Of a stretch of DNA of 64,000 nucleotides, positions 11,488 through 32,633 are shown one piece after another; within the stretch, counting starts at the first letter, position 1; each line of letters opens with the position of its first letter. The notes beneath the pieces were generated by a model, which saw only the letters and a list, made by a program, of their open reading frames with translations, was not told the origin of the DNA and did not search any database. The position numbers were made by a program, and so were the translations under genes. The DNA comes from Nitrospirota bacterium (GTDB taxonomy: Bacteria; Nitrospirota; UBA9217). Location: contig CAVUHW010000026.1 in NCBI GenBank assembly GCA_963741205.1, positions 288,001 through 352,000 of the forward strand, in the 5' to 3' direction.

Positions 11488-11964
11488 TTACTTCAAAGGT
11501 TTAGAAAGAACATAGTCCCTATCTTTCGCGCCTTCGTGGCAGGAGAGGCAATCCTTTTTAGGGTCCTTGTCGAGCATCTTGCCGTCCGCGCTGAAAGCAT
11601 ACCACTCCCACCCGCCCGTTTGCTGCATCTTGGAATTTTTCTTCATGACTGGGAAGAAGGCGCGCTTGCCCTCGTTCAAAATGCCTCCGCTCTCTACAAT
11701 TTCATAAACTGCGTCCACGATGACGGTTCCGTCAGGATATTTCCCGCCCTTTTCGAATGCTGCAAGCCCTTTACTATTCATGTAGAAGTGATGGATGCCA
11801 TGGAGCGGATGTTCCTTGTCGGTAACGATCAGGGAGCCGATATGCCGGTAAGTCTCCCAATCCTTGGGAAGTACCATGCCCTTTTGCGTCTCGGCCGATA
11901 CGGCGACGACGAGCGCACCTAAACTAAAATAGATTGCCGTGATGAAGATGAATAATTTTTTCAT
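11488..11964 (-). CDS. Cytochrome P460 / c'-beta family periplasmic monoheme protein
   Basis: Signal peptide, YPDGTVIV, VMKK, GGWEWYAF, single C-terminal CLSCH, DYV. Confidence 0.85.
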   Translation of the reverse strand: MKKLFIFITAIYFSLGALVVAVSAETQKGMVLPKDWETYRHIGSLIVTDKEHPLHGIHHFYMNSKGLAAFEKGGKYPDGTVIVDAVYEIVESGGILNEGKRAFFPVMKKNSKMQQTGGWEWYAFSADGKMLDKDPKKDCLSCHEGAKDRDYVLSKPLK

Positions 11965-12127
11965 AGTCTGCCTCCTTGATATTGGATTCCGTAAATCGCA
12001 GCGAATGAACCGCTGGCTGAGATATTGCCAAGTTTACCATCACATTCTGCATTGTTGTTGCGCTGTGTTCTTCGTCCGGTGCGAGGGCGTTGTATATTCA
12101 GGCGAAGCTTCGGCTGCCGCGGGAGCG

Positions 12128-12799
12128 TCAGAACCGGAATCCCGCCTTCAGGGCAACGGTCGTGCCGTCAAGGTCGACGGTCGTGCCGAGAACCTCGCTC
12201 TTCATCACGAAATACCTCCCTTCGAGCCCGACGACAAAGGCACCGAGATTGACGTCGACCCCCAGCCCGCCCTGATACCCGAGGTTTGCCTTGGTCGTCG
12301 AAGCCGATCCGACCTCGATCTTATTGAAATACAGGCCGCCTCCCAGCAGGACATACGGCTCGACTATGGCGATCGGTATGCCGAGCCTGAGGGACAGGTT
12401 CAGAGGGATCGAGTGGACCTTCGCGTTGGTAGAGAATAACTTCCCGTCCGTCGACATATATCCGAGGCCGAGCTCAGCGCCAATATAGGGATTGAACTTG
12501 CCGCCGTAGGCGATCTCCCAATAGGTGCCGGTGCCCGAGTCCTTGACATCCTTTTCTTTCAGCGACCATTCGCCGCCCTTGATGACGAAGTAGGAAGTCC
12601 TGTCATCCTTCTTCGGCGCGGCGGCCGGCGCTGCCGTTGCCGCCGCGGAAGCTGCAGGAGCGGCTGCGGACGTTCCGGTCATCGTCGAGGTCACCGCGGA
12701 CGCAGGAGCCGGAGCTGTTTCCTGGGACAGCGCGGGCGAAGCCGCGATCATGATCCCGCCGATGGACATCCCCATTATTGTCACTATCATTCTCTTCAT
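12128..12799 (-). CDS. Outer-membrane beta-barrel protein (OmpA/OmpW-like) with Ala/Pro/Thr-rich linker
   Basis: Signal peptide, amphipathic strands, PYVLLGGG, C-terminal GFRF. Confidence 0.85.
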   Translation of the reverse strand: MKRMIVTIMGMSIGGIMIAASPALSQETAPAPASAVTSTMTGTSAAAPAASAAATAAPAAAPKKDDRTSYFVIKGGEWSLKEKDVKDSGTGTYWEIAYGGKFNPYIGAELGLGYMSTDGKLFSTNAKVHSIPLNLSLRLGIPIAIVEPYVLLGGGLYFNKIEVGSASTTKANLGYQGGLGVDVNLGAFVVGLEGRYFVMKSEVLGTTVDLDGTTVALKAGFRF

Positions 12800-12937
12800 C
12801 GGGGTTCTCCTTTTTTCTCTCTCTATATCACGGTCTTCCGGTCGCATTGACGTTACCGGTCTTGTGGGCTTGGCTTTATCGGCTCCTACCTGATTTGTTT
12901 GCCGCGTGTGTTGTTGTTGTTGTGTGTGTGTGCGCGG

Positions 12938-14576
12938 TCACGTATTGCAGACGATATTGGCGAGTTCCTTCGAAAACGTTTCGATAGTTGACGGAATAGT
13001 CGATGGGGCATTCGACGAGGACCACGGTTTTGAGCGAGAAGGCCTTTCGCAGGACCTCCGACAGGTTATCGCCCTCCTTGACCTTCATGCCGACCGCACC
13101 GTAGCTCTCCGCGTATCTTACGAAATCCGGGTTCGTATACTCGAGCCCGAAGGCGGGATATCCCTTTGCCTGCTGCTCCCACTTGATGAACCCGTAGGCA
13201 TTGTCGTTCAGGACAAGGCAGACAAGGGGAGTATCGTACCTGAGCGCGGTCTCGAGCTCCCGCGAATTCATCATGAACCCGCCGTCCCCCACGACGGCGA
13301 GGACGTTCCGGTCGGGCTTGACCATCTTGGCCGCGATGGCCGCGGGAAGACCCGCGCCCATGGTCGCAAGGGCGTTGTCCAGGATGAACGTGTTCGGTTT
13401 GTAGGTCCGGTAGAGCCGGGAGAACCACAGCTTGTAGATCCCGTTGTCCAGCGTCAGGATGTCCTCGTGCGACATCACCTCGCGCACCCGCCATACGACC
13501 TCCTGCGGGCGTGGGGGGATACTGCTTCTTAAAATCCGAGGAAAGCTTCTTGTCCAGAAATTCCCGGATCGTTCCTGAAGGTCTCGCCCGTTCTTCCTGC
13601 CCGCGACCAACTCCCCGAGCTGCCGGAGCGAGCAGGAAACATCGCCGATGACCTCGATGTCGGGATCATAGTATTTATCGACGACCGCTTCGGAGAAATC
13701 AATGTTGATGATCTTCTTGTCGAGGTCCCTGTTCCAGACGTACGGGGGGTACTCGACGATGTTGTACCCGATCGTGATGATCACGTCCGCCTGGTCGATG
13801 CCGCAGTTGACGTAATCGCGCCGGTGCATGCCCGTCGCAAAGAGGCTGTATTCCGACGCGTCGCTCAGCACGCCCTTGCCCATCTGCGTGTGCACGGCGT
13901 AGATGCCGGTCTTTTCGATGAACTGCATCAGATGCCGGGTGATCAGGTTCCGGTTCGCGCCCGACGACAGGATGATGAGCGGGTTCTTCGCCTGGTTGAT
14001 CATCGAGGCCGCCCGCATGAGGGCCTTGGCGTCCGGCGCCGGCCTCCTGACGAGCCCCCGTTTCTGCACGCACGCATCGGTCTGGCATCCCGCAACGTCC
14101 TCGGGGAGCTCGATATGCACTGCGCCGGGACGCTCGGCCTGAGCGAGCTTGAAGGCGTTCCGGAGGACCGTCGGGATTTCGCCGGGGTCGACGATGGAGA
14201 CGGAGTTCTTGGTGATGGGCCGCATCAGGCTCACGACGTCGATAAGCTGGAACCGCGCCTGCCAGTTCGACCTGACCGCCTTCTGTCCCGAAATGGACAC
14301 GAGCGGCGCGCCGATGAGCTGCGCGTGCGCGACGCCGGTCACCAGGTTCGTCGCGCCGGGGCCGAGGGTCGAGAAGCACACCCCGGCCTTTCCCGTCAGC
14401 CTGCCGTACGTGGCAGCCATGAACGCCGCGGTCTGCTCGTGGCGCGTGATGACGACCTTGATCTTCGAGGTGCGCAGCGATTCAAGGAAATCGAGGTTCT
14501 CTTCCCCGGGCAGGCCGAAGATGTACTCTACCCCTTCTTCCTCAAGCTGCCTCACGAACAGGTCGGATGCCTTCAT
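12938..14576 (-). CDS. ThDP-dependent acetolactate-synthase-like enzyme; candidate 2-oxoglutarate decarboxylase (local frameshifts)
   Basis: FGLPGEENL, RHEQ, STLGPGATN, GDGGFMMN; removing one base near 12983 gives the C-terminus NYETFSKELANIVCNT* ending at 12938. Confidence 0.85.
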
Positions 14577-14708
14577 GCGGACTCCTCTATAATAAAACGA
14601 AGGAGGAAGGTGGACAGGTACGCAGGTCAGTCAAAGCTTCTCGCTTGGACGTGTTGACGTTACATTTTTTCGTCCCTCGTCACCTTCGTCTCTCATCCCT
14701 CGTGTTCC

Positions 14709-16211
14709 TTACTCCCTCACAACCACTGTCTTAACGTTCACGAACTCCTTCAGCCCGTAGTGCGACAGCTCCCTGCCGATGCCGGACTTCTTCACTCCGC
14801 CGAAGGGCAGCCGGGGATCGGACTTCACCATGTCGTTGATCGCGACGGTCCCGCTCTCGATCCGCGCGGCAAGCCGCTCGGCCCGCTCGATGTTCCTGCT
14901 CCAAACCGAAGCGCCAAGCCCGTATTCGGTGTTGTTCGCCGCCCTGACCGCCTCGTCCTCGTCCTTCACCACGATGATCGGCGCGATGGGGCCGAAGACC
15001 TCTTCGGTCAGGACCTTCATGTTCGGCTTGGTATTGATCACCATGCAGGGCGTGAAGAACAAACCCTTCGTGAAGGTCTGTCCCGCCGAGAGCACCCTGG
15101 CCCCTTTCGCCTTTGCGTCCCGCAGCTGTTCCTTCAAGCCATCGAGGATATCCTTCCGCGCCACGGTGCCGATGTCGGTGGTCTCGTCCATGGGATCGCC
15201 GAGCTTCATTTCCTTGAGCCGCGCCAGGAAATGCCTGACAAACTCGTCGGCCACGCTTTCCATGACGATGAATCGTTTTGCCGCGATGCAGCTCTGGCCG
15301 GTGTTGATCATGCGGGCATTAGCCGCCATACGGCCCGCCTTTTCCACGTCTGCGTCATCCAGAACGATGTACGGGTCGGAGCCGCCCAATTCGAGCACAA
15401 CCTTCTTGATCCTCCTGCCCGCATGGGCCCCGATCTCCTCGCCCGCCCGGTTGCTTCCGGTGAGCGACACGGCATCGACAAGGTCGTCATCGATGAGCCT
15501 CAGGGCTTCCGCAGCGTCGATCAGCGCCGTTTTGAACACGTTCTCCGGGAAACCTGCTTTGGTAAAGGCCTCCTCGATCGCCAGCGCCGTCTGCGGCACG
15601 TTCGACGCATGCTTCAGCAGCACAACATTCCCCGCTGTGACCGCGGGAACGCCGAACCGGAAGGCTTGCCAGAACGGGAAGTTCCAGGGCATGACCGCCA
15701 GCACGATGCCGAGGGGCTGGAACATGACATAGCTCTTCTTTGCCTCGGTCTTGATCTCCTCAGGCTTAAGGAACGAAACGGCGTTCCCGGCATAATAGTC
15801 CGCAAGCACCGCGCATTTTTCAACCTCGGCAAGCGCTTCCTTGATGGGTTTCCCCATCTCGCTCGTCATAAGCTCCGCATAGCGCCGCTTCTCGGCGCGC
15901 AGCACCTCCCCGAGCTTCGTGAGGAGAATCGCACGGCCCGCAACTGGCACGTCCCGCCACTTGACGAAAGCATCACGGGACTCTTTCACCTGCCCGTTCA
16001 GTTCCCACGTAGTCATGAGCGGAAACTTTTTCATCACCTCTTCGGTGAAGGGATTGATCGAATGCAGCTTCTTCGGCGTCTGCTGTGTTTTTGATATCGC
16101 AACAGTTGCCTTCATAATTTTCACCCCCTTTTTCGGGGACACAATATTTTTCGCCCTTGCTCGTTGTGTTCCTGCTTTCCTTTTCTCAACGCTTGTTTTC
16201 TTCGTTGACAT
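14709..16211 (-). CDS. gabD: NAD(P)-dependent succinate-semialdehyde dehydrogenase (GabD1/Sad type)
   Basis: PLGIVLAVMPWNFPFWQ, LELGGSDP, GQSCIAAKRF, FGGVKKSGIGREL; alternative start at 16115. Confidence 0.85.
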   Translation of the reverse strand: MSTKKTSVEKRKAGTQRARAKNIVSPKKGVKIMKATVAISKTQQTPKKLHSINPFTEEVMKKFPLMTTWELNGQVKESRDAFVKWRDVPVAGRAILLTKLGEVLRAEKRRYAELMTSEMGKPIKEALAEVEKCAVLADYYAGNAVSFLKPEEIKTEAKKSYVMFQPLGIVLAVMPWNFPFWQAFRFGVPAVTAGNVVLLKHASNVPQTALAIEEAFTKAGFPENVFKTALIDAAEALRLIDDDLVDAVSLTGSNRAGEEIGAHAGRRIKKVVLELGGSDPYIVLDDADVEKAGRMAANARMINTGQSCIAAKRFIVMESVADEFVRHFLARLKEMKLGDPMDETTDIGTVARKDILDGLKEQLRDAKAKGARVLSAGQTFTKGLFFTPCMVINTKPNMKVLTEEVFGPIAPIIVVKDEDEAVRAANNTEYGLGASVWSRNIERAERLAARIESGTVAINDMVKSDPRLPFGGVKKSGIGRELSHYGLKEFVNVKTVVVRE

Positions 16212-16341
16212 CCGTCGTCCTCCATGATTTCTAATCTCAGCGTTTAAAGCTCATGGACCGAAAGAAACCGAGCCTTAATTCCGCATCCGCTGCGCCCACG
16301 TTACGATGCCTGGCACGGTTGAATTCCGCACTCGCATCAGA

Positions 16342-17523
16342 TCACTTCCTCTGCCCGATCGGCTCATAGGCGCAGCCGGTCTTGCCGCAGTAATTGCCGA
16401 TATACTCCGACGACGGCCGGTAGAGGGCCGGCTTTTCCTGGGCGTCGCCGAACTTCTCCTCGATGATATGCGCGGTCCAGCCCGCGATCCGGGCCACGGC
16501 AAAGACCGGCGTCATGAGATCGTGCGGAATGCCCATCATATGGTAGACCGGCGCGCTGTAGAAATCGACGTTCGGCTTGATCGTGGTCTTGCCCCGTTTG
16601 ACGAACTCGGCCACGGCCGCCTCCTCGATCTGCGTTGACAGCCCGCACCACTGTTCCTGTCCCGTCTTCTTGCCGATCCTGAAGCACATGTCCTTCAGAA
16701 ACCGCGCCCTCGGGTCAGTCGTTTTATACACCGCGTGGCCCATACCCATGATCTTCTGGCCGCTGTCGAGCTGTTTCCTTACCCACCCGGCAACGTCCTT
16801 CTCGTGCTCCAGTTCCTGGAGCATCTTCATGACCTGCGCATTCGCCCCGCCGTGAAGGCTGCCGGAAAGTGCTCCCACGCCCGCCGCAACGCCGGCGTAC
16901 ATGTGCGCGCGCGTGGATACGACCTCGCGGCACGCGAAGGTGGACGCATTGAAGGAATGATCGGCGTGAAGCAGGAGCGCCGTATCGAGATCATGCGCGA
17001 TCTCCGCATCGGGATAGGTCCCCTTGAGAAGCCACAGAAAGTTTCCGGCATGGGACAGGTTTTCATCGGACGGCAGCGGCTCATGCCCCCTCCGCAGCCG
17101 GTCCCAGCCTGCCACGATCATGGGAATCCGCGCGATAAGCCTGATGGCCTTGGAGATGTTCGCCTCCCTTGTTTCCGACTGCAAATCGGGGTCGGCCGTG
17201 GCCAGGATCGGGATCGAGGCCTGGAGCACATCCATGGGATGGGATGTCTTCGGCAGTTTCCTGAGGCTGTCGAAAACGAACGACGGAAGCTCCCCCGCCT
17301 CGATCAGCTTGCGCTTGAAATCCTCGAGCTGCTCCTCGTTCGGCAGCGCGTCGTGAAGAAGCAGATAGGCCGTTTCCTCGAAGGTCGAGTTCCGCGCCAG
17401 GTCCTCGATGCGGTACCCGCGGTAAATAAGGATGCCGTTCTCGCCGTCCACGTGGGATATCTTCGTGTCCGCCACGGTCACGCCGCGAAGACCGATGTTC
17501 TTTACTTTCAAGGCCTCTGGCAT
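16342..17523 (-). CDS. gltA: Citrate synthase
   Basis: GLRGV, HADHSFNAST, GSLHGGAN, GMGHAVYK, PNVDFY. Confidence 0.92.
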   Translation of the reverse strand: MPEALKVKNIGLRGVTVADTKISHVDGENGILIYRGYRIEDLARNSTFEETAYLLLHDALPNEEQLEDFKRKLIEAGELPSFVFDSLRKLPKTSHPMDVLQASIPILATADPDLQSETREANISKAIRLIARIPMIVAGWDRLRRGHEPLPSDENLSHAGNFLWLLKGTYPDAEIAHDLDTALLLHADHSFNASTFACREVVSTRAHMYAGVAAGVGALSGSLHGGANAQVMKMLQELEHEKDVAGWVRKQLDSGQKIMGMGHAVYKTTDPRARFLKDMCFRIGKKTGQEQWCGLSTQIEEAAVAEFVKRGKTTIKPNVDFYSAPVYHMMGIPHDLMTPVFAVARIAGWTAHIIEEKFGDAQEKPALYRPSSEYIGNYCGKTGCAYEPIGQRK

Positions 17524-17717
17524 CGCAGCCTCCCTTTTGGCTCTTTTATGTTTGAGATCGCACCCATAGTGACGCCTTTCTTGAAGACCGGTCACGACCG
17601 CATGAGACCCTTCGCAAGGAAGGGCTTGAGGATGGATAAAGATTCTAAGAACCACTTAATCTTCCCTTAAGAGTCGTCTTACTTCGAGTTGGCATGCGGC
17701 TTAAAATTTCATAAGCT

Positions 17718-19663
17718 TCATGCCTTTACCAGCAGTTCCTCTTTCACAAAATTCAGCGTCCCGCCGGCCAGCAGATGTTTTCTCTGGCGGTCGGACACGT
17801 CCAGAATCGTCATGATCACCCTGCCGTCGACCTCCACGGGTATCTCCCGGTCCCCCCGTTCGATCCGCTTCCGCACATCGGGAAACACGACCTTCGTCCC
17901 TTTCTTCAGGAGGTCATAGTCCTTCGGGTCCTTGAAGGTAAGCGGGAGAATGCCGAAGTTGCAGAGATTGGACTTGTGGATGCGGGCAAAGCTCTTGACG
18001 ATCTTCGCGCGGACGCCCAGATACCGGGGAGCAAGCGCCGCATGTTCGCGGCTCGACCCCTGGCCGTAGTTCTCGCCGCCCACGACGACCACCGTGCCCC
18101 TCGCCTTGCACTCCTTCGCGAAATCGGGGTCGACCTGCGAGAACACGAACTCGGCCAATGCCTCGATATTGGAACGGAACGGCAGCACCCGGTTTCCCGC
18201 CGGCATGATCCCGTCGGTGGACATGTTGTCTCCCACCTTCAGCACCACCTCGGCCGCGAGCGTGTCGGGAAGCGCGTCGAGCTCGGGCAGCGGCTTGATG
18301 TTCGGCCCGCGCACGATCTCCGTCCCGGCAAGTTCTTCGGACGGGAAGAATGATAGACCTCTCATCGATCACATACTGTTTCGGGTCCTCGATTCGGGGA
18401 TACGCCATTTCCTTCGCAAGTTCGCGGGGATCGGTGATCACGCCTTTTAGCGCCGCCGCGGTCGCCGTCTCCGGCGAGCAGAGATAGACCTGGTCGTCCT
18501 TGGTGCCCGCTCCTGCCCGGGAAGTTCCGCGGGAAGGTGCGAAGGCTCACCTCGCCGGTGCCGGGCGCCTGGCCCATGCCGATGCAGCCCTGGCAGCCGG
18601 GTTCATGCACGCGCGCGCCCGAAGTCAAGAAAGCGAGGAGCCCGCCCGCCTGATACACATTTTCGAGCACCTGCCTGCTGCCGGGGTTCACGTGGAACGA
18701 CGTATTCGGGATGAACGCGCCTGCCTTCCAGCATCCTGGCCGAGACCATCAGGTCCCGGAAGGACGAGTTCACGCTGCTGCCCACGATGGCCTGGTCCAC
18801 TTTGATGCCGGCGATCTCGCGCACCGGCACCACGTTTCCGGGCGACGACGGCTTGGCGATCAGCGGCTCGAGCTTCGACAAGATCGATCTCGGCGTGTTC
18901 GTCATACTCTGCGCCCTCGTCGGCGGAGAGCGGGACCCAGGCATCGCCCCGGCCCTGGGCATCAGGTATTCCCGGGTGCGCTCGTCGGACGGAAAGATGG
19001 AGGTCGTGGCCCCGGTCTCGGTGCCCATGTTGCCGATGGTCTCCCGGTCCGTGGCGGACAGGGTCGGGACCCCCGGGCCGTAGTACTCGATGATCTTGCC
19101 CACGCAGCCCTTGACGTCGTAGCGGCGCAGCATTTCGAGGATCACGTCCTTGGCGCTCACCCAGTCGGGAAGTCTGCCCGTGAGCCTGACGCCGAGCACC
19201 TTGGGGCAGGGGAGATGATAGGGATAGCCGGCCATGGCCAGGGCCACGTCGAGACCGCCCGCGCCGATGCCGAGCATCGAGACGCCGGCGGCGCCGGGCG
19301 TATGGCTGTCCGCGCCGAAAAGGGTTTTGCCCGGAACGCCGAAGCGCTCCATGTGCACCTGGTGCGAAACTCCGTTGCCCGGCCTGCTGAAATGGAGGCC
19401 GTATCTGGACGCGGCGGTCTGGAGGAATTTGTGGTCGTCGGCGTTCTTGTTATCGGTCTGGAGAAGGTTGTGGTCCACGTACTGCGCCGCAAGTTCCGCC
19501 TTTACCCGGTGAGGCCCAGGGCCTCGAACTCGAGCATGGCGAGCGTGCCGGTCGCGTCCTGGAGCAGCGTGTGGTCGATCCGGATGCCGATCTCCCTGCC
19601 GGGTACGAGTTCACCCTCCACCAAGTGGGCTTCCAGTATCTTATAAGTAAGGTTTTTTTGCAT
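17718..19663 (-). CDS. acnA: Aconitate hydratase (several frameshifts)
   Basis: MQKNLTYKIL...QDATGT, GADSHT, GCQGCIGMGQAP, RNFPGRSG, NYGQGSSREHAA across consecutive frames. Confidence 0.9.
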
Positions 19664-20090
19664 GCTGTTCCCCGCCCCGGTCAGTAAATTATTTTTTAAT
19701 TTGGACTGAATTTATCCCTTTTAGAGGGGCCGATCTTCTGCATTTTCCTAATTCATTTTACCACAATTTGCCAGGCAAGGCGCGCCTCCGATAAACGGTA
19801 CGTTTGGGGAAAAAGAGGTTTTTCGCGCCTACCTTGGTCACGATGATTTATATCATTCAAGTTCTTTCTCTTAACACGGCATCCTGGAGTTTTGTTCTGA
19901 CTAAACCATTGAGTGACCCTGATCCGGTCAACTGGCAAGGAGTTAGAAGCTTAATTTCCCATGAGAATACATCAAGGATTGACCTGCTCGTTCAAAGTGA
20001 GCGGCTCAAAGTGAACATAATGCTGCGTTTAACCGTATTTTCAGTGTTATAACTAATTGTTTTCCTAAAGATAGTCATTCTGCAAATCTA

Positions 20091-20106
20091 TGGCATAAGC
20101 ATTGCT
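20091..20106 (+). promoter_or_regulatory. sigma54 (-24/-12) promoter
   Basis: TGGCATA-AGCA-TTGCT; IHF-like site (1 mismatch) at 20050..20062. Confidence 0.7.
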
Positions 20107-20262
20107 ATAAATAAAAGTGGAAGACTTTCGATATTCGTAAAAAAAATGATTTACCCAGGATAAGGAACACAAGGGGGTGTAATTCCCAGATTCTCATTCA
20201 TGAGATTTCACACCCGAGCCGGCATCAAGTCCGGCTCTTCCTCTCTCAAATGGAGGGTAGAA

Positions 20263-21538
20263 ATGAAAACATTCAAATCATATATGATAATCACCGCGGC
20301 GCTTACAGTATTGACCATGGGCCTCGCCCATTGCAGCAGCGGCGGTAATAGTGGGTCATCTTCTTCCGATAAAAACGGGGATGGCACTGCCAATACTCTC
20401 TCGGGCGTTGCCGCAGCGGGCGCGCCTGTTGCGTCCGCAACGATAACCCTGAAGGACAGGAAAGGTTCCCTGAAGACCAGCGTCACGGGAACAGACGGCA
20501 AATATTCGTTCGACATAACAGACATGACAGCGCCGTTTCTTCTCAAGGTCCCGTCGGGCACCGGTCGATCTTTACAGCGTGGCAACCTCATCAGGAACAG
20601 CCAATATCCACCCCTATACGGATCTCATCGTAAGGAACTGGTACGCGGTCAAGGGGAGCGATGTGGAGACGGTTTTCGACGAGCACGGGGGCACTTCCCT
20701 CGCCACCGACCGCGGCTGATATATCGACGATTGAGACCGCTGTAAAGAGCATCATGAAGACCTGGCTTCAGCAAGAAGGCCTTGATGAGTCGTCCTTCAA
20801 CCTTATCACCTCGTCCTTTGACGCTAACAGCGTCCGGGTTCGACAAAATCCTGGACATGACAATGGTTGAGATCGATGCTGCGGGCCAAGTAACTGTGGA
20901 AAGCTGCGACCCGGCAACCGGTCTTGACGGTACTATGGTTGCAACGAACATCACAAAACTGGCGGCAGCCGATACGGCTCCACCAAGTGATCCCGCCGGT
21001 CTTATAGCGACAGGAGCCGATAAAAACAAGATCGTCTTGCTGTGGAACGCCTCGACTGATGACATCGGCGTCGCGGGATACAATATTTACAGGGGTAATA
21101 CAAAGATCGGGAAGTCCCCTGCCCTGATTTATACGGATTCCGCAGGGCTTGAGCCCTGCACCGAGTACTGCTATCAGGTTGAGGCATTCGACGGGGCGGG
21201 GAATGTATCCGCCAATAAGAGCGGCCAGGCATGCGCCTTCGACCCTCGCGGAATTCGGACACAGCGCTCCCTCAACGCCTTCCAATCTGACCGCAACGGC
21301 CTAGCTACCTCGCAGATAAGCCTGTCGTGGACGGCATCTACGGATGATTTAAGCAACTGACGGTTACAAAGTATACCGGGACGGTAATAGGATCGAATCG
21401 GTAGCAATTCCTGCAACGAGCTTCGTTGATGATAAGAGGCTTTCCGCACATACCCAATATTGCTACACCGTGAAGGCCTTTGACGCAGCAGGGAACAATT
21501 CCCCGGACAGCAACCAGGTCTGTATAACGACGCCGTAG
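20263..21538 (+). CDS. Lipoprotein with carboxypeptidase-regulatory-like domain and two fibronectin type III repeats (frameshifted)
   Basis: Lipobox LAHC; GAPVASATITLKD; two FN3 units WxASTD...YCYxVxAFDxAGN. Confidence 0.75.
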
Positions 21539-24555: not shown

Positions 24556-25827
24556 TCATAAATTCCCGCGCAATCTTTCCGCGTTCAGTATCCTCTTGAC
24601 CGCCAGTTCATATGCCGCCTTGCGCATGCGGCACCGGGCCTCGCGGCAATGGCCGCTGACGTCATTATAAGCGGTGATCATGATCTCCCGGAGGCGCGAC
24701 AGGACTTTCTCCTCCGGCCACGTATCGTTGCTCAAGTTCTGGCTCCACTCGAAGTAGCTCACCACGACACCTCCCGCATTCGCGAGAATGTCCGGGATGA
24801 GAAAAATATTTCTGTCGAACAGGATATCGTCCGCGGCCGAGGTCGTCGGTGCGTTGGCGAGTTCCAGGATGATCTTTGCCTTCACGTCTTTCGCATTATT
24901 CGCATCGATCTGGTTGGAAAGCGCCGCGGGGACGAGGACGTCGCAGTCGACCGTCAGAAGCTCTGCGTTCGTGATTTCCTGTGCGCCCGGGAATTCCGCT
25001 ACGCTGCCCGTCTGCTTCTTGTGCTCCATCACCGCCGGAATATCGAGACCTCCGGGATCCAGAACGCCGCCTTTCACGTCGCTTACGGCGATGACACGGT
25101 ATCCCCGTTCGTGAAGGAGCCTCGCGGCGTTCTCGCCCACGTTGCCGAATCCCTGCACTGCCACGCGCAGTCCGCGGGGCTCCATCCCCTGTTCCGCGAG
25201 GGCCTGCTCGAGCACATGGATCCCGCCCAGGGCGGTGGAATACCTTCGCGCTACGATGCCTCCCAGCTCCGGCGGCTTGCCCGTGACCACGGCGGGCGAA
25301 TGCTCGCGCCTGATCCGCTCGTACTCGTCGAGGATCCACGCCATGATCTGCTCGTCGGTGTAGACGTCCGGCGCGGGAATGTCTTTAAACGGTCCGATAT
25401 AGTCCGCGATGGCGCGGATGTACCCGCGCGTCACGAGTTCGAGGTCCCGCCGCGAAAGGTCCATGGGATTGACGACAACGCCGCCCTTCGCGCCGCCGAA
25501 GGGGATGTTCACAACGGCGCACTTGAGCGCCATGAGAAAGGCGAGTTCGCCCGCGTGGTTGGCGTCCATCTCGGGATGGAAGCGGATGCCGCCCTTGGCC
25601 GGGCCCCGCGCATCGTTGTACAGGACGCGGTAGCCGGTAAAGATCTGCGTCTTTCCCGTGGTCATCTTCACCGGAAAGCTGACGGTAAAGGACTGCTTTG
25701 GAACGGACAGCAGGTCCAGCTCGTCCTGCGAGAGGCCGAGGTCCGCGTAGATGTTCTGGAGCTCCGTCATGCCGAGGCTGCGGAGGTCCTGCTCGTCGCG
25801 GTGTAATCGGTCATGGTCACGTTGCAT
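24556..25827 (-). CDS. gdhA: Glu/Leu/Phe/Val dehydrogenase (glutamate dehydrogenase)
   Basis: GPAKGGIRFHP, PFGGAKGG, DIPAPDV, VQGFGNVG, NAGGVVVSYFEW. Confidence 0.92.
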   Translation of the reverse strand: MQRDHDRLHRDEQDLRSLGMTELQNIYADLGLSQDELDLLSVPKQSFTVSFPVKMTTGKTQIFTGYRVLYNDARGPAKGGIRFHPEMDANHAGELAFLMALKCAVVNIPFGGAKGGVVVNPMDLSRRDLELVTRGYIRAIADYIGPFKDIPAPDVYTDEQIMAWILDEYERIRREHSPAVVTGKPPELGGIVARRYSTALGGIHVLEQALAEQGMEPRGLRVAVQGFGNVGENAARLLHERGYRVIAVSDVKGGVLDPGGLDIPAVMEHKKQTGSVAEFPGAQEITNAELLTVDCDVLVPAALSNQIDANNAKDVKAKIILELANAPTTSAADDILFDRNIFLIPDILANAGGVVVSYFEWSQNLSNDTWPEEKVLSRLREIMITAYNDVSGHCREARCRMRKAAYELAVKRILNAERLRGNL

Positions 25828-27383: not shown

Positions 27384-27586
27384 GGCGTTTCTCCTTTACC
27401 ACTTATTATAGATTCAATCCCGGCGATGGTCAACTCACGGCCGCTCATACATAGTATACATGTACTGCTGCTCAAGAGGGTTAACATCCTTTTATAAAAA
27501 AATCACCGTGCAAAAATCGGATAAAGTATGTATAATTGTAACCATTGTCGTCAGGACCATCGATCAACCGACCATTGAATATCGTT

Positions 27587-28981
27587 ATGACTGACTACCG
27601 CATCGAAAAAGACTCTCTCGGCGACGTACGGGTTCCCTCGGACGCGCTCTACAGCGCCCAGACCCAGCGGGCAGTCGAAAACTTTCCCGTTAGCGGCATC
27701 CGCTTTCCCCGGGTTTTCATCAAGGCACTCAGCCTCATCAAGGCGACGGCCGCTGAAGTCAATGCCGGCATGGGACTGCTCGATGCCGGGATCGCCCAGG
27801 CTATCTTCGATGCCTCCCTCGAAGCGGCCGACGGCAAATGGGACGAGCAGTTTCCCCTCGATATCTTCCAGACCGGATCGGGAACGTCGACGAACATGAA
27901 CGCCAACGAGGTGATCGCGACGCGGGCGACGCAGCTTCTCGGCAAGCCGGATAAGCCGGTCCATCCCAACAATCACGTGAACATGGGCCAGTCGTCCAAT
28001 GACGTCATTCCGGCAGCGATCCACGTAAGCGCCTATCTCGAAACAAGCGAAGTGCTCATTCCTGCGCTGAAGCATCTTCACAGCGCGCTCAAAAAACGGG
28101 AAGCGGAGTTTCATGATATCGTAAAAACCGGGCGCACTCACCTGATGGACGCCATGCCTGTGAAGCTGAGCCAGGAAATCGGCGGATGGGCCTTCCAAGT
28201 GCAGCAGGCCATCGAACGCATTGAATCCACGCTCCCCCGTCTTGCGAAGCTTGCCCTCGGCGGCACTGCGGTCGGAACGGGCATCAATGCACCCAAGGAA
28301 TTCGGGAAGATCGTAGCCCAGCGGCTTGCCGGCAGGACGAACCTGCCCTTCAGGGAAACAGACAATCACTTCGCAGCACAGGCGACCATGGACACTGCTG
28401 TGGAGCTTTCGGGCCAGTTGAAAACCACGGCCTCTTCATTCATGAAGATGGCAAACGACCTGCGCTGGATGAACAGCGGGCCCATTGCCGGCCTCGGCGA
28501 GATAGCGCTTCCCGCCCTGCAACCCGGTTCGAGCATCATGCCCGGCAAGGTGAACCCGGTCATGTGTGAGATGATGATGATGGTGTCCGCCCAGGTCACG
28601 GGAAACGATGCGACAATCGCTATCTGCAACCAGCAGGGGAATTTCGAGCTGAACGTCATGCTGCCGGTCATTGCCCATAATCTTCTTCAGTCCGTCACGC
28701 TGCTCGGAAACGCATCCCGCCTGCTGGCGGACAAGGCAATCGCCGGTTTCACCGTGAACCGCGAGCGCATCGCGGGACTCGTGGACAAGAACCCGATACT
28801 CGTCACGGCGCTGAATCCCGTAATCGGGTACGACAAGGCGGCACAGATCGCAAAGAAGGCTTATGCCGAGGGCCGGTCCTTAAAGGAAGTTGCCGCAGAG
28901 ATGACGAACCTGTCCAAAGAAGAGCTGGACAAATTGCTCGATCCGAGGCCCATGACCGAGGGCGGGATTAGCGTCGCATAG
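27587..28981 (+). CDS. fumC: Fumarate hydratase class II
   Basis: QTGSGTSTNMN, GRTHLMDA, GSSIMPGKVNP. Confidence 0.95.
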   Translation: MTDYRIEKDSLGDVRVPSDALYSAQTQRAVENFPVSGIRFPRVFIKALSLIKATAAEVNAGMGLLDAGIAQAIFDASLEAADGKWDEQFPLDIFQTGSGTSTNMNANEVIATRATQLLGKPDKPVHPNNHVNMGQSSNDVIPAAIHVSAYLETSEVLIPALKHLHSALKKREAEFHDIVKTGRTHLMDAMPVKLSQEIGGWAFQVQQAIERIESTLPRLAKLALGGTAVGTGINAPKEFGKIVAQRLAGRTNLPFRETDNHFAAQATMDTAVELSGQLKTTASSFMKMANDLRWMNSGPIAGLGEIALPALQPGSSIMPGKVNPVMCEMMMMVSAQVTGNDATIAICNQQGNFELNVMLPVIAHNLLQSVTLLGNASRLLADKAIAGFTVNRERIAGLVDKNPILVTALNPVIGYDKAAQIAKKAYAEGRSLKEVAAEMTNLSKEELDKLLDPRPMTEGGISVA

Positions 28982-29047: not shown

Positions 29048-29717
29048 ATGTTTCTCCCAACATCCACCGTCGGCAGAAAAATCATCATGGCCATTACCGG
29101 CCAGATCCTGGTCTTCTTCATCGTCTTTCATATATCCGGCAACTCGTCGATCTTTTTCCACACGCTCAACGCCTATGTCGTATTTCTCCACTCCCTTCCC
29201 GTTGTTATCTGGGGCGGCCGGCTCTTCCTGCTCGCCGCCTTCGGCCTTCATCTCTGGTACGGCGCCGTATTGAAGCTCGAAAATTATGAAGCGAAACCTC
29301 AGCCCTATGCGGTTACTCACTATTATCAGGCCACCTTCGCGGGCAGGAATCAAATCTGGACCGGCGTTATCATCGCGGCTTTCCTCGTGTACCATCTTCT
29401 CCACTTCACGCTCCAGGTGACGAACCCTATCTATCGCGGCAGTCTCCAACAAGGACGCCCTCGGCAGACCGGATACGCTCATGATGGTGGTCAGAAGTTT
29501 TCAGAATATCGGAATTTCAGGAATCTACCTGCTGTCTCTTGCCGCCCTTGGACTGCATCTGCTCCACGGCATCCAGAGTTCATTCCAGTCCTGGGGACTC
29601 ACAAACGACCAAACGCTGCCGGTCATTGAAGCATCGGGAACCGCGGCTTCTATCGCACTCTTTTTCTGGTATTGCGCGATCCCGGTTTCGATTGTGTTGG
29701 GGATATTTAAGGGATGA
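29048..29717 (+). CDS. sdhC: Succinate dehydrogenase/fumarate reductase cytochrome b subunit (frameshift near 29450)
   Basis: STVGRKIIMAITG, HISGN, HLLHF, HLLHGIQSSFQSWG; upstream of sdhA. Confidence 0.88.
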
Positions 29718-29846
29718 GATGATCCGATAGCAGCCATTCCCACACGGCAGGCATGGATTTTCTCTTTTTCACTTCCTGGCTTTGTGCGAGACAGGTTTTA
29801 TGCGACGTTGTCATATTCAGTTCTCGTTATCTGGAGCTTATCAAAG

Positions 29847-31760
<1,914 letters not shown>

Positions 31761-31784
31761 ATTGCGGAATGCGCAATAAAGGTC

Positions 31785-31871
31785 GTCATTCCCGCCCCTG
31801 CTTTAAGCATGCTGGGGCAGGCTCAAGCGGGAATCCAGGGTCTCTGGAGTCCGGGTCAAGCCCGGAATGAC
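31785..31871. repeat. REP-like nested palindromic element (GTCATTCCCGC...GCGGGAATCCAG...GGAATGAC type)
   Basis: Terminal GTCATTCC/GGAATGAC inverted repeat with internal hairpins, between sdhA and sdhB. Confidence 0.7.
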
Positions 31872-31889
31872 AGTCGGGATGATTCTTTT

Positions 31890-32633
31890 ATGAACTTAAC
31901 CCTCTATGTTTGGCGTCAAAAAGGCCCCAAGGACAAAGGCAATCTCGTCCGGTACGAAGCAAAGGACATCAGCTCAGACATGTCCTTTCTTGAAATGCTC
32001 GACACCGTGAACGAGGGCCTTATCAAACAAGGGGACGAGCCCATCGCGTTTGACAGCGATTGCCGCGAGGGCATCTGCGGCATGTGCGGCCAGGTCGTGA
32101 ACGGCATCCCGCACGGGCCGCGGAAGAACACGACGGTCTGCCAGCTCCACATGCGCCGCTTCAAGGACGGCGACACGATCTACATCGAGCCGTTCCGCGC
32201 CAAGGCCTTCCCGGTAATAAAAGACCTCGTCGTGGACCGGAGCGCATTCGACAGAATCATCCAGGCCGGGGGCTACATCTCAGTCCACACGGGCGGCGTA
32301 CCCGACGGCAACGCGGTCCTCATTCCGAAGCAGGACGCAGATACGGCCATGGACGCTGCCGAGTGCATCGGCTGCGGCGCCTGCGTCGCTGCCTGCCCGA
32401 ACGGTTCGGCCATGCTCTTTACTTCCGCGAAGGTATCACACCTTGCTATGCTGCCCCAGGGAAAACCCGAAGCCGCCCGCAGGGTCTGCGTCATGACCGA
32501 GGAAATGCTGAAGCAGGGTTTCGGCAATTGCAGCAATCACTACGAGTGCGAGGCCGTCTGTCCCAAGGGGATCAAGGTGAAGTTCATCGCAAAACTCAAC
32601 CGTGAATTTATCAAGGCGCAAATGCCGGGATAA
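31890..32633 (+). CDS. sdhB: Succinate dehydrogenase/fumarate reductase Fe-S subunit
   Basis: [34 protein letters not shown]. Confidence 0.95.

Follow-up and report, generated by a model that had tools for sequence, protein, structure and literature searches.

A tricarboxylic acid (TCA) cycle bypass by which 2-oxoglutarate is turned into succinate by way of succinic semialdehyde was reportedly described by Zhang and Bryant in 2011 in Synechococcus sp. PCC 7002 (genes A2770/A2771). Comparable genes are considered here in a 64,000-nucleotide stretch of an uncultured Nitrospirota genome (assembly GCA_963741205.1, contig CAVUHW010000026.1, positions 288,001 to 352,000), hereafter the window, where genes for aconitase (acn), citrate synthase (gltA), an aldehyde dehydrogenase (ALDH) and a thiamine diphosphate (ThDP)-dependent enzyme annotated as acetolactate synthase follow one another. 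The locus is probably an acn-gltA-ssaD-ogdA operon encoding a bypass of the OgdA/SsaD type known from cyanobacteria. This cyanobacterial route is treated in one source (PMC5160925), and according to another some methanogens and anaerobic bacteria were already seen in the 2011 study to have closely related genes (PMC12214013). Succinic semialdehyde variants of the cycle have also been discussed for rhizobia, mycobacteria, Frankia and methanotrophs (PMC10418658 and PMC11850969, among other sources), and in PMC6131200 the name 2-oxoglutarate decarboxylase figures solely as a marker annotation.

Where sucAB/sucCD or korAB are missing, metabolic reconstructions of uncultured Nitrospirota count the TCA cycle as incomplete, and in an aquifer study a non-cyclic "horseshoe" TCA pathway is given for one Nitrospirota class (PMC11033732). 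Literature searches in which 2-oxoglutarate decarboxylase or succinic semialdehyde dehydrogenase (SSADH) was paired with Nitrospirae, Nitrospirota or Thermodesulfovibrionia found no publication, and oxoglutarate, acetolactate and semialdehyde are unmentioned in the main text of the Nitrospirota genomics papers examined. Most likely the locus would represent an already known pathway in another host.

The four genes are arranged head-to-tail on the minus strand (12876-19663), according to both open reading frames (ORFs) and family profiles, with intergenic gaps of about 60-130 nt. They comprise an aconitate hydratase of about 650 amino acids (aa) and PRK07229/TIGR01342 type (17718..19663), recognized through pieces that match positions 63-323, 326-388 and 441-644 of the 647 in NF005558; a type II citrate synthase (16342..17655; TIGR01800, 427.4 bits, cut-off 421.3; PF00285, 434 bits) with a true start probably at about 17523 (Met45); an ssaD-like NADP-type SSADH (14709..16211; best model NF006915, PDB entries 3VZ1/4IT9); and the ThDP enzyme, ogdA-like but bearing the label acetolactate synthase large subunit (12938..14576, in the ORF 12876-14576), which is assigned by NF006187, three TPP Pfam domains and a phylogenetic tree. 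The 3' end of the ALDH gene lies 132 nt upstream of the ThDP gene. An earlier note made from the DNA letters had announced four co-oriented genes, and its bounds fit, since the aconitase match starts at 19663 and the stop of the ThDP gene is expected at 12938 after correction of the frame at its 3' end. All four genes are present; a point absent from that note is that the aconitase gene is no single open frame (six frame changes) and that the ThDP gene contains three changes, to which we return below.

In the pathway that we infer for this locus, citrate synthase and aconitase would lead to isocitrate, which an NADP-isocitrate dehydrogenase encoded elsewhere in the genome would convert to 2-oxoglutarate. 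The ThDP enzyme would then decarboxylate 2-oxoglutarate non-oxidatively to succinic semialdehyde, and the neighbouring NADP-type SSADH would turn this into succinate. Such a pair, irreversible and free of coenzyme A (CoA) and ferredoxin, would replace 2-oxoglutarate dehydrogenase and succinyl-CoA synthetase, neither of which was found in the genome as assembled, and sdhCAB, a fumarase-like lyase and malate dehydrogenase would complete an oxidative cycle.

Compared with the cyanobacterial systems (OgdA/KGD and SsaD of strain PCC 7002 and the Microcystis enzyme MaKGD), the window shares the NF006187 family, the adjacent and co-oriented genes, a partner NADP-SSADH of the SsaD type whose catalytic and succinic semialdehyde-binding residues are identical, and a host in which 2-oxoglutarate dehydrogenase was not found. 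It differs in that citrate synthase and aconitase genes belong to the operon that holds the pair, and in that the host is a non-phototroph with dsrAB, oxidases and a second paralogue of the ThDP enzyme. The SucA-like Kgd route of mycobacteria and Frankia and the rhizobial 2-oxoglutarate decarboxylase bypass would reach the same net chemistry via succinic semialdehyde, as far as the sections available of PMC10418658 and PMC11850969 describe them; those enzymes, however, are homologues of E1 (SucA), and no SucA-family gene was found in the window's genome.

The N-terminus of the ThDP enzyme reads ...YIFGLPGEENLDF, and all three TPP Pfam domains are found in the protein. It scores 768.7-769.2 bits on NF006187 (PRK08322; cut-off 509) and stays below the cut-offs of the AlsS models (NF006378, 453.6 vs. 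510; TIGR02418, 421.2 vs. 551.1) and of the IlvB model (TIGR00118, 384.5 vs. 538.35). The meaning of the NF006187 match was calibrated on five cyanobacterial genomes that were reached through a 16S primer pattern and then searched with this model (Trichodesmium erythraeum IMS101, Chlorogloeopsis fritschii PCC 6912, Scytonema sp. NIES-4073, Calothrix sp. NIES-3974 and Microcoleus vaginatus HSN003). In each of the five a single gene reaches 871-884 bits; the next best matches (303-388 bits) are taken to be IlvB. The residues named for the assayed Microcystis KGD in the sections available of PMC10418658 are E50, Q254, V382, A384, H385, K386, A408, M410, G434-D435-G436-G437, D462, Y465, L467, K471 and Y531, and the five cyanobacterial genes carry all 17 mapped residues, the offset being -3 throughout. 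In three of the five genomes the OgdA gene is adjoined by an ALDH with 49-52% identity to that of the window. Because single cyanobacterial genes match the KGD residues and, in three genomes, have an ALDH neighbour, NF006187 is the OgdA/KGD family under an acetolactate synthase name. This equivalog labels KGD-matching genes of cyanobacteria "acetolactate synthase large subunit", a systematic source of misannotation, and since its name covers such genes the mislabel spreads to every genome annotated with it. The earlier note had anticipated a misannotation of this kind, and the ThDP gene of the window is indeed named "acetolactate synthase" both by the sources and by NCBIfam.

Related loci were retrieved with the single ThDP protein as query, and among the best 80 (79 of them from other genomes) there is no cyanobacterium. 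The phylogeny of the enzyme was reconstructed from 94 sequences, of which 15 Nitrospirota rows were omitted as near-identical or partial, while six loci had been dropped earlier because their ThDP frame fell short of 480 aa; the resulting 79 rows were analysed by an IQ-TREE quick search under LG+C20+F+G4, with support from the Shimodaira-Hasegawa-like approximate likelihood ratio test (SH-aLRT) only. A family of 66 rows (SH-aLRT 99) unites cyanobacterial OgdA, the window protein and the second paralogue. Three annotated AlsS proteins with budA neighbours are sister to this family, and IlvB/IlvI together with Gcl form one clade outside. The phylogeny called for by the earlier note accordingly places the enzyme with the cyanobacterial OgdA orthologues and apart from AlsS and IlvB/IlvI. 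Within the family the window protein is not nested among cyanobacteria; it is found with its Nitrospirota kin in a sub-branch of 20 rows that includes Methanosarcinales, Methanomassiliicoccales and Eisenbacteria and is sister to a Rhizobium/Burkholderiaceae sub-branch.

It is very improbable that the protein acts as a catabolic or anabolic acetolactate synthase in the true sense, as its annotation would have it. The label given by the sources and NCBIfam, the common fold and ThDP motifs and the closest solved structures (acetolactate synthases, 310-390 bits) would agree with that function, but the AlsS and IlvB cut-offs are not reached, the tree sets the protein apart from both groups, and it has neither the Gln of AlsS at positions 408 and 471 nor the Trp of IlvB at 471. 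With AlsS/BudB, its sister clade, it shares about 33-34% identity, the same three-domain ThDP fold and the lack of a regulatory subunit; it differs from them by Lys in place of His/Tyr at 386, by Ala and Glu in place of Gln at 408 and 471, and by its neighbour, an ALDH where the three AlsS reference loci have acetolactate decarboxylase. With IlvB/IlvN it has in common the ThDP superfamily and the "acetolactate synthase large subunit" label, at 29-32% identity. The genes flanking the enzyme are an ORF with no family match and the ALDH gene, so no acetolactate decarboxylase is adjacent, and an ALDH partner would be senseless for acetolactate. Neither an acetolactate synthase small subunit nor ilvC/ilvD occurs at the locus, as had been claimed: the genome holds a canonical ilvD-ilvB-ilvN-ilvC cluster on another contig, C20, with its only ilvN at C20:329150-329620, which also settles the search for a separate ilvBN.

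In its catalytic part the active site agrees with the cyanobacterial enzymes. The window protein retains the GDGG...D motif along with M410 and the catalytic Glu, and all of the residues subjected to mutagenesis in MaKGD according to the sections available of PMC10418658 (E50, M410, D435, D462, Y465) are present. Y465 is replaced by Phe in two close relatives. K386 is family-specific: it is retained in the window protein and invariant in the family, with His/Tyr at this position in AlsS and Gln in IlvB. Position 471 is the specificity hot-spot of the ThDP superfamily, with Trp in AHAS and Gln in AlsS, and in the alignment this column does show Trp in IlvB and Gln in AlsS.

The aldehyde dehydrogenase has as its best NCBIfam model NF006915, NADP-SSADH of the GabD1 type (518 bits), and as its best solved relatives 3VZ1, 4IT9, 3VZ2 and 3VZ3 (436-440 bits; 440 for 3VZ1/4IT9), followed by Sad/YneI. 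According to the part available of PMC7510979, 3VZ3 is the SSADH of Synechococcus sp. PCC 7002, in which Cys262, Glu228 and Asn131 are catalytic, Trp135, Arg139 and Ser419 surround the substrate carboxylate, and Lys154 and Ser157 determine the cofactor. The window enzyme keeps all eight of these: N177, W181, R185, K200, S203, E274, C308 and S464 pair, in this order, with their PCC 7002 counterparts N131, W135, R139, K154, S157, E228, C262 and S419. The GabD1-type SSADH proposed by the earlier note is supported by the retention of every residue that binds succinic semialdehyde in the cyanobacterial enzyme, and the protein would be expected to act on this substrate. It also has an N-terminal extension (window 16068-16211) of about 48 aa, rich in Lys/Arg; this basic extension is present, poorly conserved, in the loci L029 and L071 and is absent in the cyanobacterial enzymes.

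The gene arrangement is conserved. In 48 of the 79 related loci from other genomes, bacterial as well as archaeal, an SsaD-type ALDH with the W135/R139 signature is adjacent and co-oriented; six have another ALDH type with lactaldehyde dehydrogenase as its best model, in four the ALDH is 5-6 kb distant, and 21 show none, several of these being truncated by contig ends and one (L074) having a frame-broken ALDH. Among the 31 loci from other genomes with at least 69% ThDP identity, the SsaD-type ALDH is found in 29, citrate synthase in 28 and aconitase in 24, in the order acn, gltA, ALDH, ThDP, and most of the misses fall at contig ends. Because this order recurs in most of the 31 close loci, the four-gene arrangement is not due to chance. 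Scans of 11800-20400 gave no excess of promoters (4 sites vs. a shuffle mean of 2.4) or of terminators (11 sites vs. a shuffle mean of 9.2) and carry no information on where the operon begins or ends.

The rest of the genome, which is 84.5% complete with 4.9% contamination, fits the proposed bypass. In the sequence available SucA gave no match and SucC only one of 19.6 bits, and the check for sucAB/sucCD that the earlier note had asked for came out as expected. NADP-isocitrate dehydrogenase (NF006156, 635 bits) and malate dehydrogenase (TIGR01763, 461 bits) are present. Since no glutamate decarboxylase (PF00282) was found in this roughly 84%-complete genome, a γ-aminobutyrate route to succinic semialdehyde is not evident. 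As for kor/oor, three 2-oxoacid:ferredoxin oxidoreductase alpha-type genes are present, one PorAB-like, one VorB-like (NF005507, 540 bits, cut-off 399) and one IorA, and none of them passes a KorA/OorA model. The genome carries haem-copper oxidases of the COX1 family in addition to dsrAB.

The distribution among relatives was surveyed in 41 genomes, namely that of the window and 40 relatives, of which 25 belong to the same family and 16 to other families. NF006187 is over its cut-off in 25 of the 41, including 22 of the 25 from the same family, where two of the three misses are contig-end fragments. SucA is over its cut-off in none of the 41, several of which are listed as 100% complete, and SucC in 13, comprising three of the 25 genomes of the same family vs. 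10 of the 16 from other families. Expressed by gene content, SucC occurs in four of the 25 genomes with an OgdA-type gene vs. nine of the 16 without it, which is a pattern rather than a test as kin are not independent. Taken with the tree and the locus, these in silico checks support the proposal of the earlier note that a non-cyanobacterial genome may close its cycle as cyanobacteria do.

Several observations weigh against this assignment. The identity of the window protein to the cyanobacterial OgdA orthologues is only 42-44% (29-32% to cyanobacterial IlvB) and it lies in a separate sub-branch; the deep branching order within the 66-row family is without resolution, and the sister sub-branch of Rhizobium/Burkholderiaceae has no adjacent ALDH. 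Two fusion proteins, P0124 (1016 aa) and P0182 (1019 aa), join the ThDP enzyme to an ALDH that is not of the SsaD type; such fusions support an aldehyde-forming decarboxylase as the function of the family, with partners that vary, and for the same reason the family may hold other substrate specificities. The ALDH remains below the cut-off of NF006915 (518 vs. 730), which is not alarming because the ALDHs beside OgdA in Scytonema and Chlorogloeopsis (689 and 687) likewise fall short of 730. The genome is only 84.5% complete, its VorB-like oxidoreductase might also use 2-oxoglutarate, and a further paralogue of the NF006187 family (714 bits) is encoded in it. As assembled, both the aconitase gene and the ThDP gene have broken frames. 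Finally, docking on an AlphaFold model, as reported in the sections available of PMC10418658, places Q254, V382, K386, A408, L467 and K471 on 2-oxoglutarate, and of these six contacts the window protein keeps two (K386 and A408), with H, N, F and E replacing Q254, V382, L467 and K471. Because the contacts are docking predictions on a model, these differences weaken the OgdA assignment but do not refute it.

The docking contacts also bear on another explanation, namely that the ThDP enzyme decarboxylates some other 2-oxo acid (for instance pyruvate, 2-oxoadipate or oxaloacetate), that the ALDH oxidizes the product and that the link to the TCA cycle is one of position only. This is unlikely, even if four of the six predicted contacts differ, including a change from Lys to Glu at the specificity hot-spot, and even if a lactaldehyde dehydrogenase-like ALDH accompanies the enzyme in six of the 79 loci, which belong to other sub-branches, and the two fusions carry non-SsaD partners. 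The contacts are predictions and not structures; the partner ALDH retains the equivalents of W135, R139 and S419, which hold the carboxylate of succinic semialdehyde; and citrate synthase and aconitase are part of the operon in 24-28 of the 31 close loci. To our knowledge, 2-oxoglutarate is the sole source of succinic semialdehyde by ThDP-dependent decarboxylation, as established chemistry has it.

If 2-oxoglutarate is the substrate, as the bypass assignment holds, the altered pocket could itself be a feature of the group. The window-type sub-branch has Lys at 469, two residues before E471, and basic residues at 255-256, and the full signature (H254 / basic 255-256 / N382-I384-Y385 / F467 / K469-E471) is shared by some 36 sequences, among them Nitrospirota, Methanosarcinales and Methanomassiliicoccales, nearly all of which stand beside an SsaD-type ALDH. 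We regard it as an evenly balanced proposition that this sub-branch would constitute a 2-oxoglutarate decarboxylase of a second type, its substrate pocket re-wired, closing the cycle in dsrAB-bearing Nitrospirota. Were this so, these bacteria would possess an irreversible, CoA- and ferredoxin-free module leading from acetyl-CoA and oxaloacetate to succinate, and the "horseshoe" or incomplete cycles of uncultured Nitrospirota would in fact be closed. In more general terms, if the bypass operates, members of this bacterial family could fully oxidize acetyl-CoA with neither 2-oxoglutarate dehydrogenase nor succinyl-CoA synthetase nor an oxygen-sensitive ferredoxin enzyme, and the irreversible step would bear on arguments about oxidative vs. 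reductive operation of the cycle.

The frame breaks were examined by comparison of the window with the intact proteins of a related metagenome-assembled genome (MAG; L029). In the aconitase gene six frame changes lie near 19511-19517, 18957-18960, 18880, ~18705, 18506-18510 and 18343-18348, so that its pieces match the model in changing frames and not as one open frame; L029 has the gene intact, as a frame of 647 aa, and in L016 and L024 a single long open frame spans it. In the ThDP gene three changes lie near 13569-13587, 13507-13517 and ~12983, and the ORF of 566 aa consequently contains garbled residues at about 331-355 and a false C-terminal tail; close homologues, mostly of 544 aa, cover 94% of the window query. 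The citrate synthase and ALDH genes each run in a single frame relative to the same MAG. Public runs contain no more than 12% of the words sampled from the locus, so that the source sample is not one of them. Contigs of relatives from four such runs (85-99% likeness) differ from the window by indels of 1 nt at 19510, 18960, 18879, 18705, 18506, 18348 and 13506, all of them sites where its frame shifts. The window indels are absent in these kin, a result compatible with both error and mutation.

Should the nine frame changes in aconitase and ThDP enzyme be real, the operon would be decaying and the pathway lost in this host. The breaks do stand in the deposited sequence, they are confined to two of the four genes, and the relatives' contigs in the four runs are without them, but this reading is nevertheless quite improbable. 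Between the breaks the segments retain 66-97% aa identity to the relative, and once the frame is corrected no premature stop interrupts them; frame splits also affect many other genes of the genome, such as ilvD, ilvB, recN (in three pieces), dsrA and sdhC, and three of eight other sampled targets (a small sample of 14 target keys, eight of them outside the operon); and another MAG, L074, displays a like pattern of breaks across citrate synthase, ALDH and ThDP enzyme. Because other genes of the genome are split as well, the breaks in the operon are probably assembly indels. This suggests that the assembly carries frequent indel errors and that gene calls in this genome need comparison with relatives. 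The split genes are located at C8:197604-198750 (dsrA), L012:9165-10970 (recN), L014 (ilvD/ilvB) and 29048-29717 of the window (sdhC).

The second paralogue is encoded at C20:222527-224137 (L011:8519-10168, minus strand), where it stands alone by a DedA/UptA-like gene and a TnpB fragment, and its signature is V382/T384/C385/K386/L467/K469/K471. Genes of this type (about 704-719 bits) occur in nine of the 25 genomes of the same family, and in a Thermodesulfovibrio MAG (L071) one of them adjoins an SsaD-type ALDH 70% identical to that of the window. Other architectures related to the ThDP enzyme were noted in P0129 (677 aa) and P0241 (691 aa), one of which is fused to a cyclic-nucleotide-binding domain (16-member cluster) and one of which has an N-terminal FlK-type thioesterase. 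At E<=1e-40, relatives of the window protein occur in 892 plasmid records, a number that includes genes for AlsS, IlvB and pyruvate oxidase, and many of the best matches are from Rhizobium. One such locus (L243, 285111-286757 of plasmid pRL12 of Rhizobium johnstonii 3841) encodes a member of the family with about 49% identity to the window protein, without ALDH, some 1.5 kb downstream of dctA, a C4-dicarboxylate transporter gene, and a LysR regulator.

Further genes of the TCA cycle lie 5-13 kb from the operon. A glutamate dehydrogenase, at the 2-oxoglutarate node, is predicted on the minus strand (24556..25827; NF040817, 467 bits, with the cut-off of 750 not reached), and a lyase of the class II fumarase/aspartase family on the plus strand (27545..28981; TIGR00979 fumC, 574.8 bits, cut-off 664.75; NF008909, 536.8 bits, cut-off 510). 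The latter is followed, on the same strand, by genes for a succinate dehydrogenase/fumarate reductase of the Bacillus type (29048..32633): sdhC in two frames (29048-29717), sdhA (29784-31760) and sdhB (31809-32633). The scores for this enzyme are 1145.6 bits (NF005749), 918.8 bits (TIGR01811) and 435.9 bits (NF005746), with a PF02910 match at C26:319350-319754, and the putative membrane subunit sdhC was called from the ORFs.

RNA contigs from one soil metatranscriptome match stretches of relatives' genes for ALDH, citrate synthase and aconitase; they offer a weak hint of expression, as such libraries can contain DNA. Immediately beside the operon, an ORF of 239 aa on the minus strand (12128-12847) has a signal-peptide-like N-terminus and a beta-barrel-like C-terminus and gave no NCBIfam match, and on the opposite side the plus strand of 20200-21360 holds lipoprotein-like ORFs that are seemingly frame-split.

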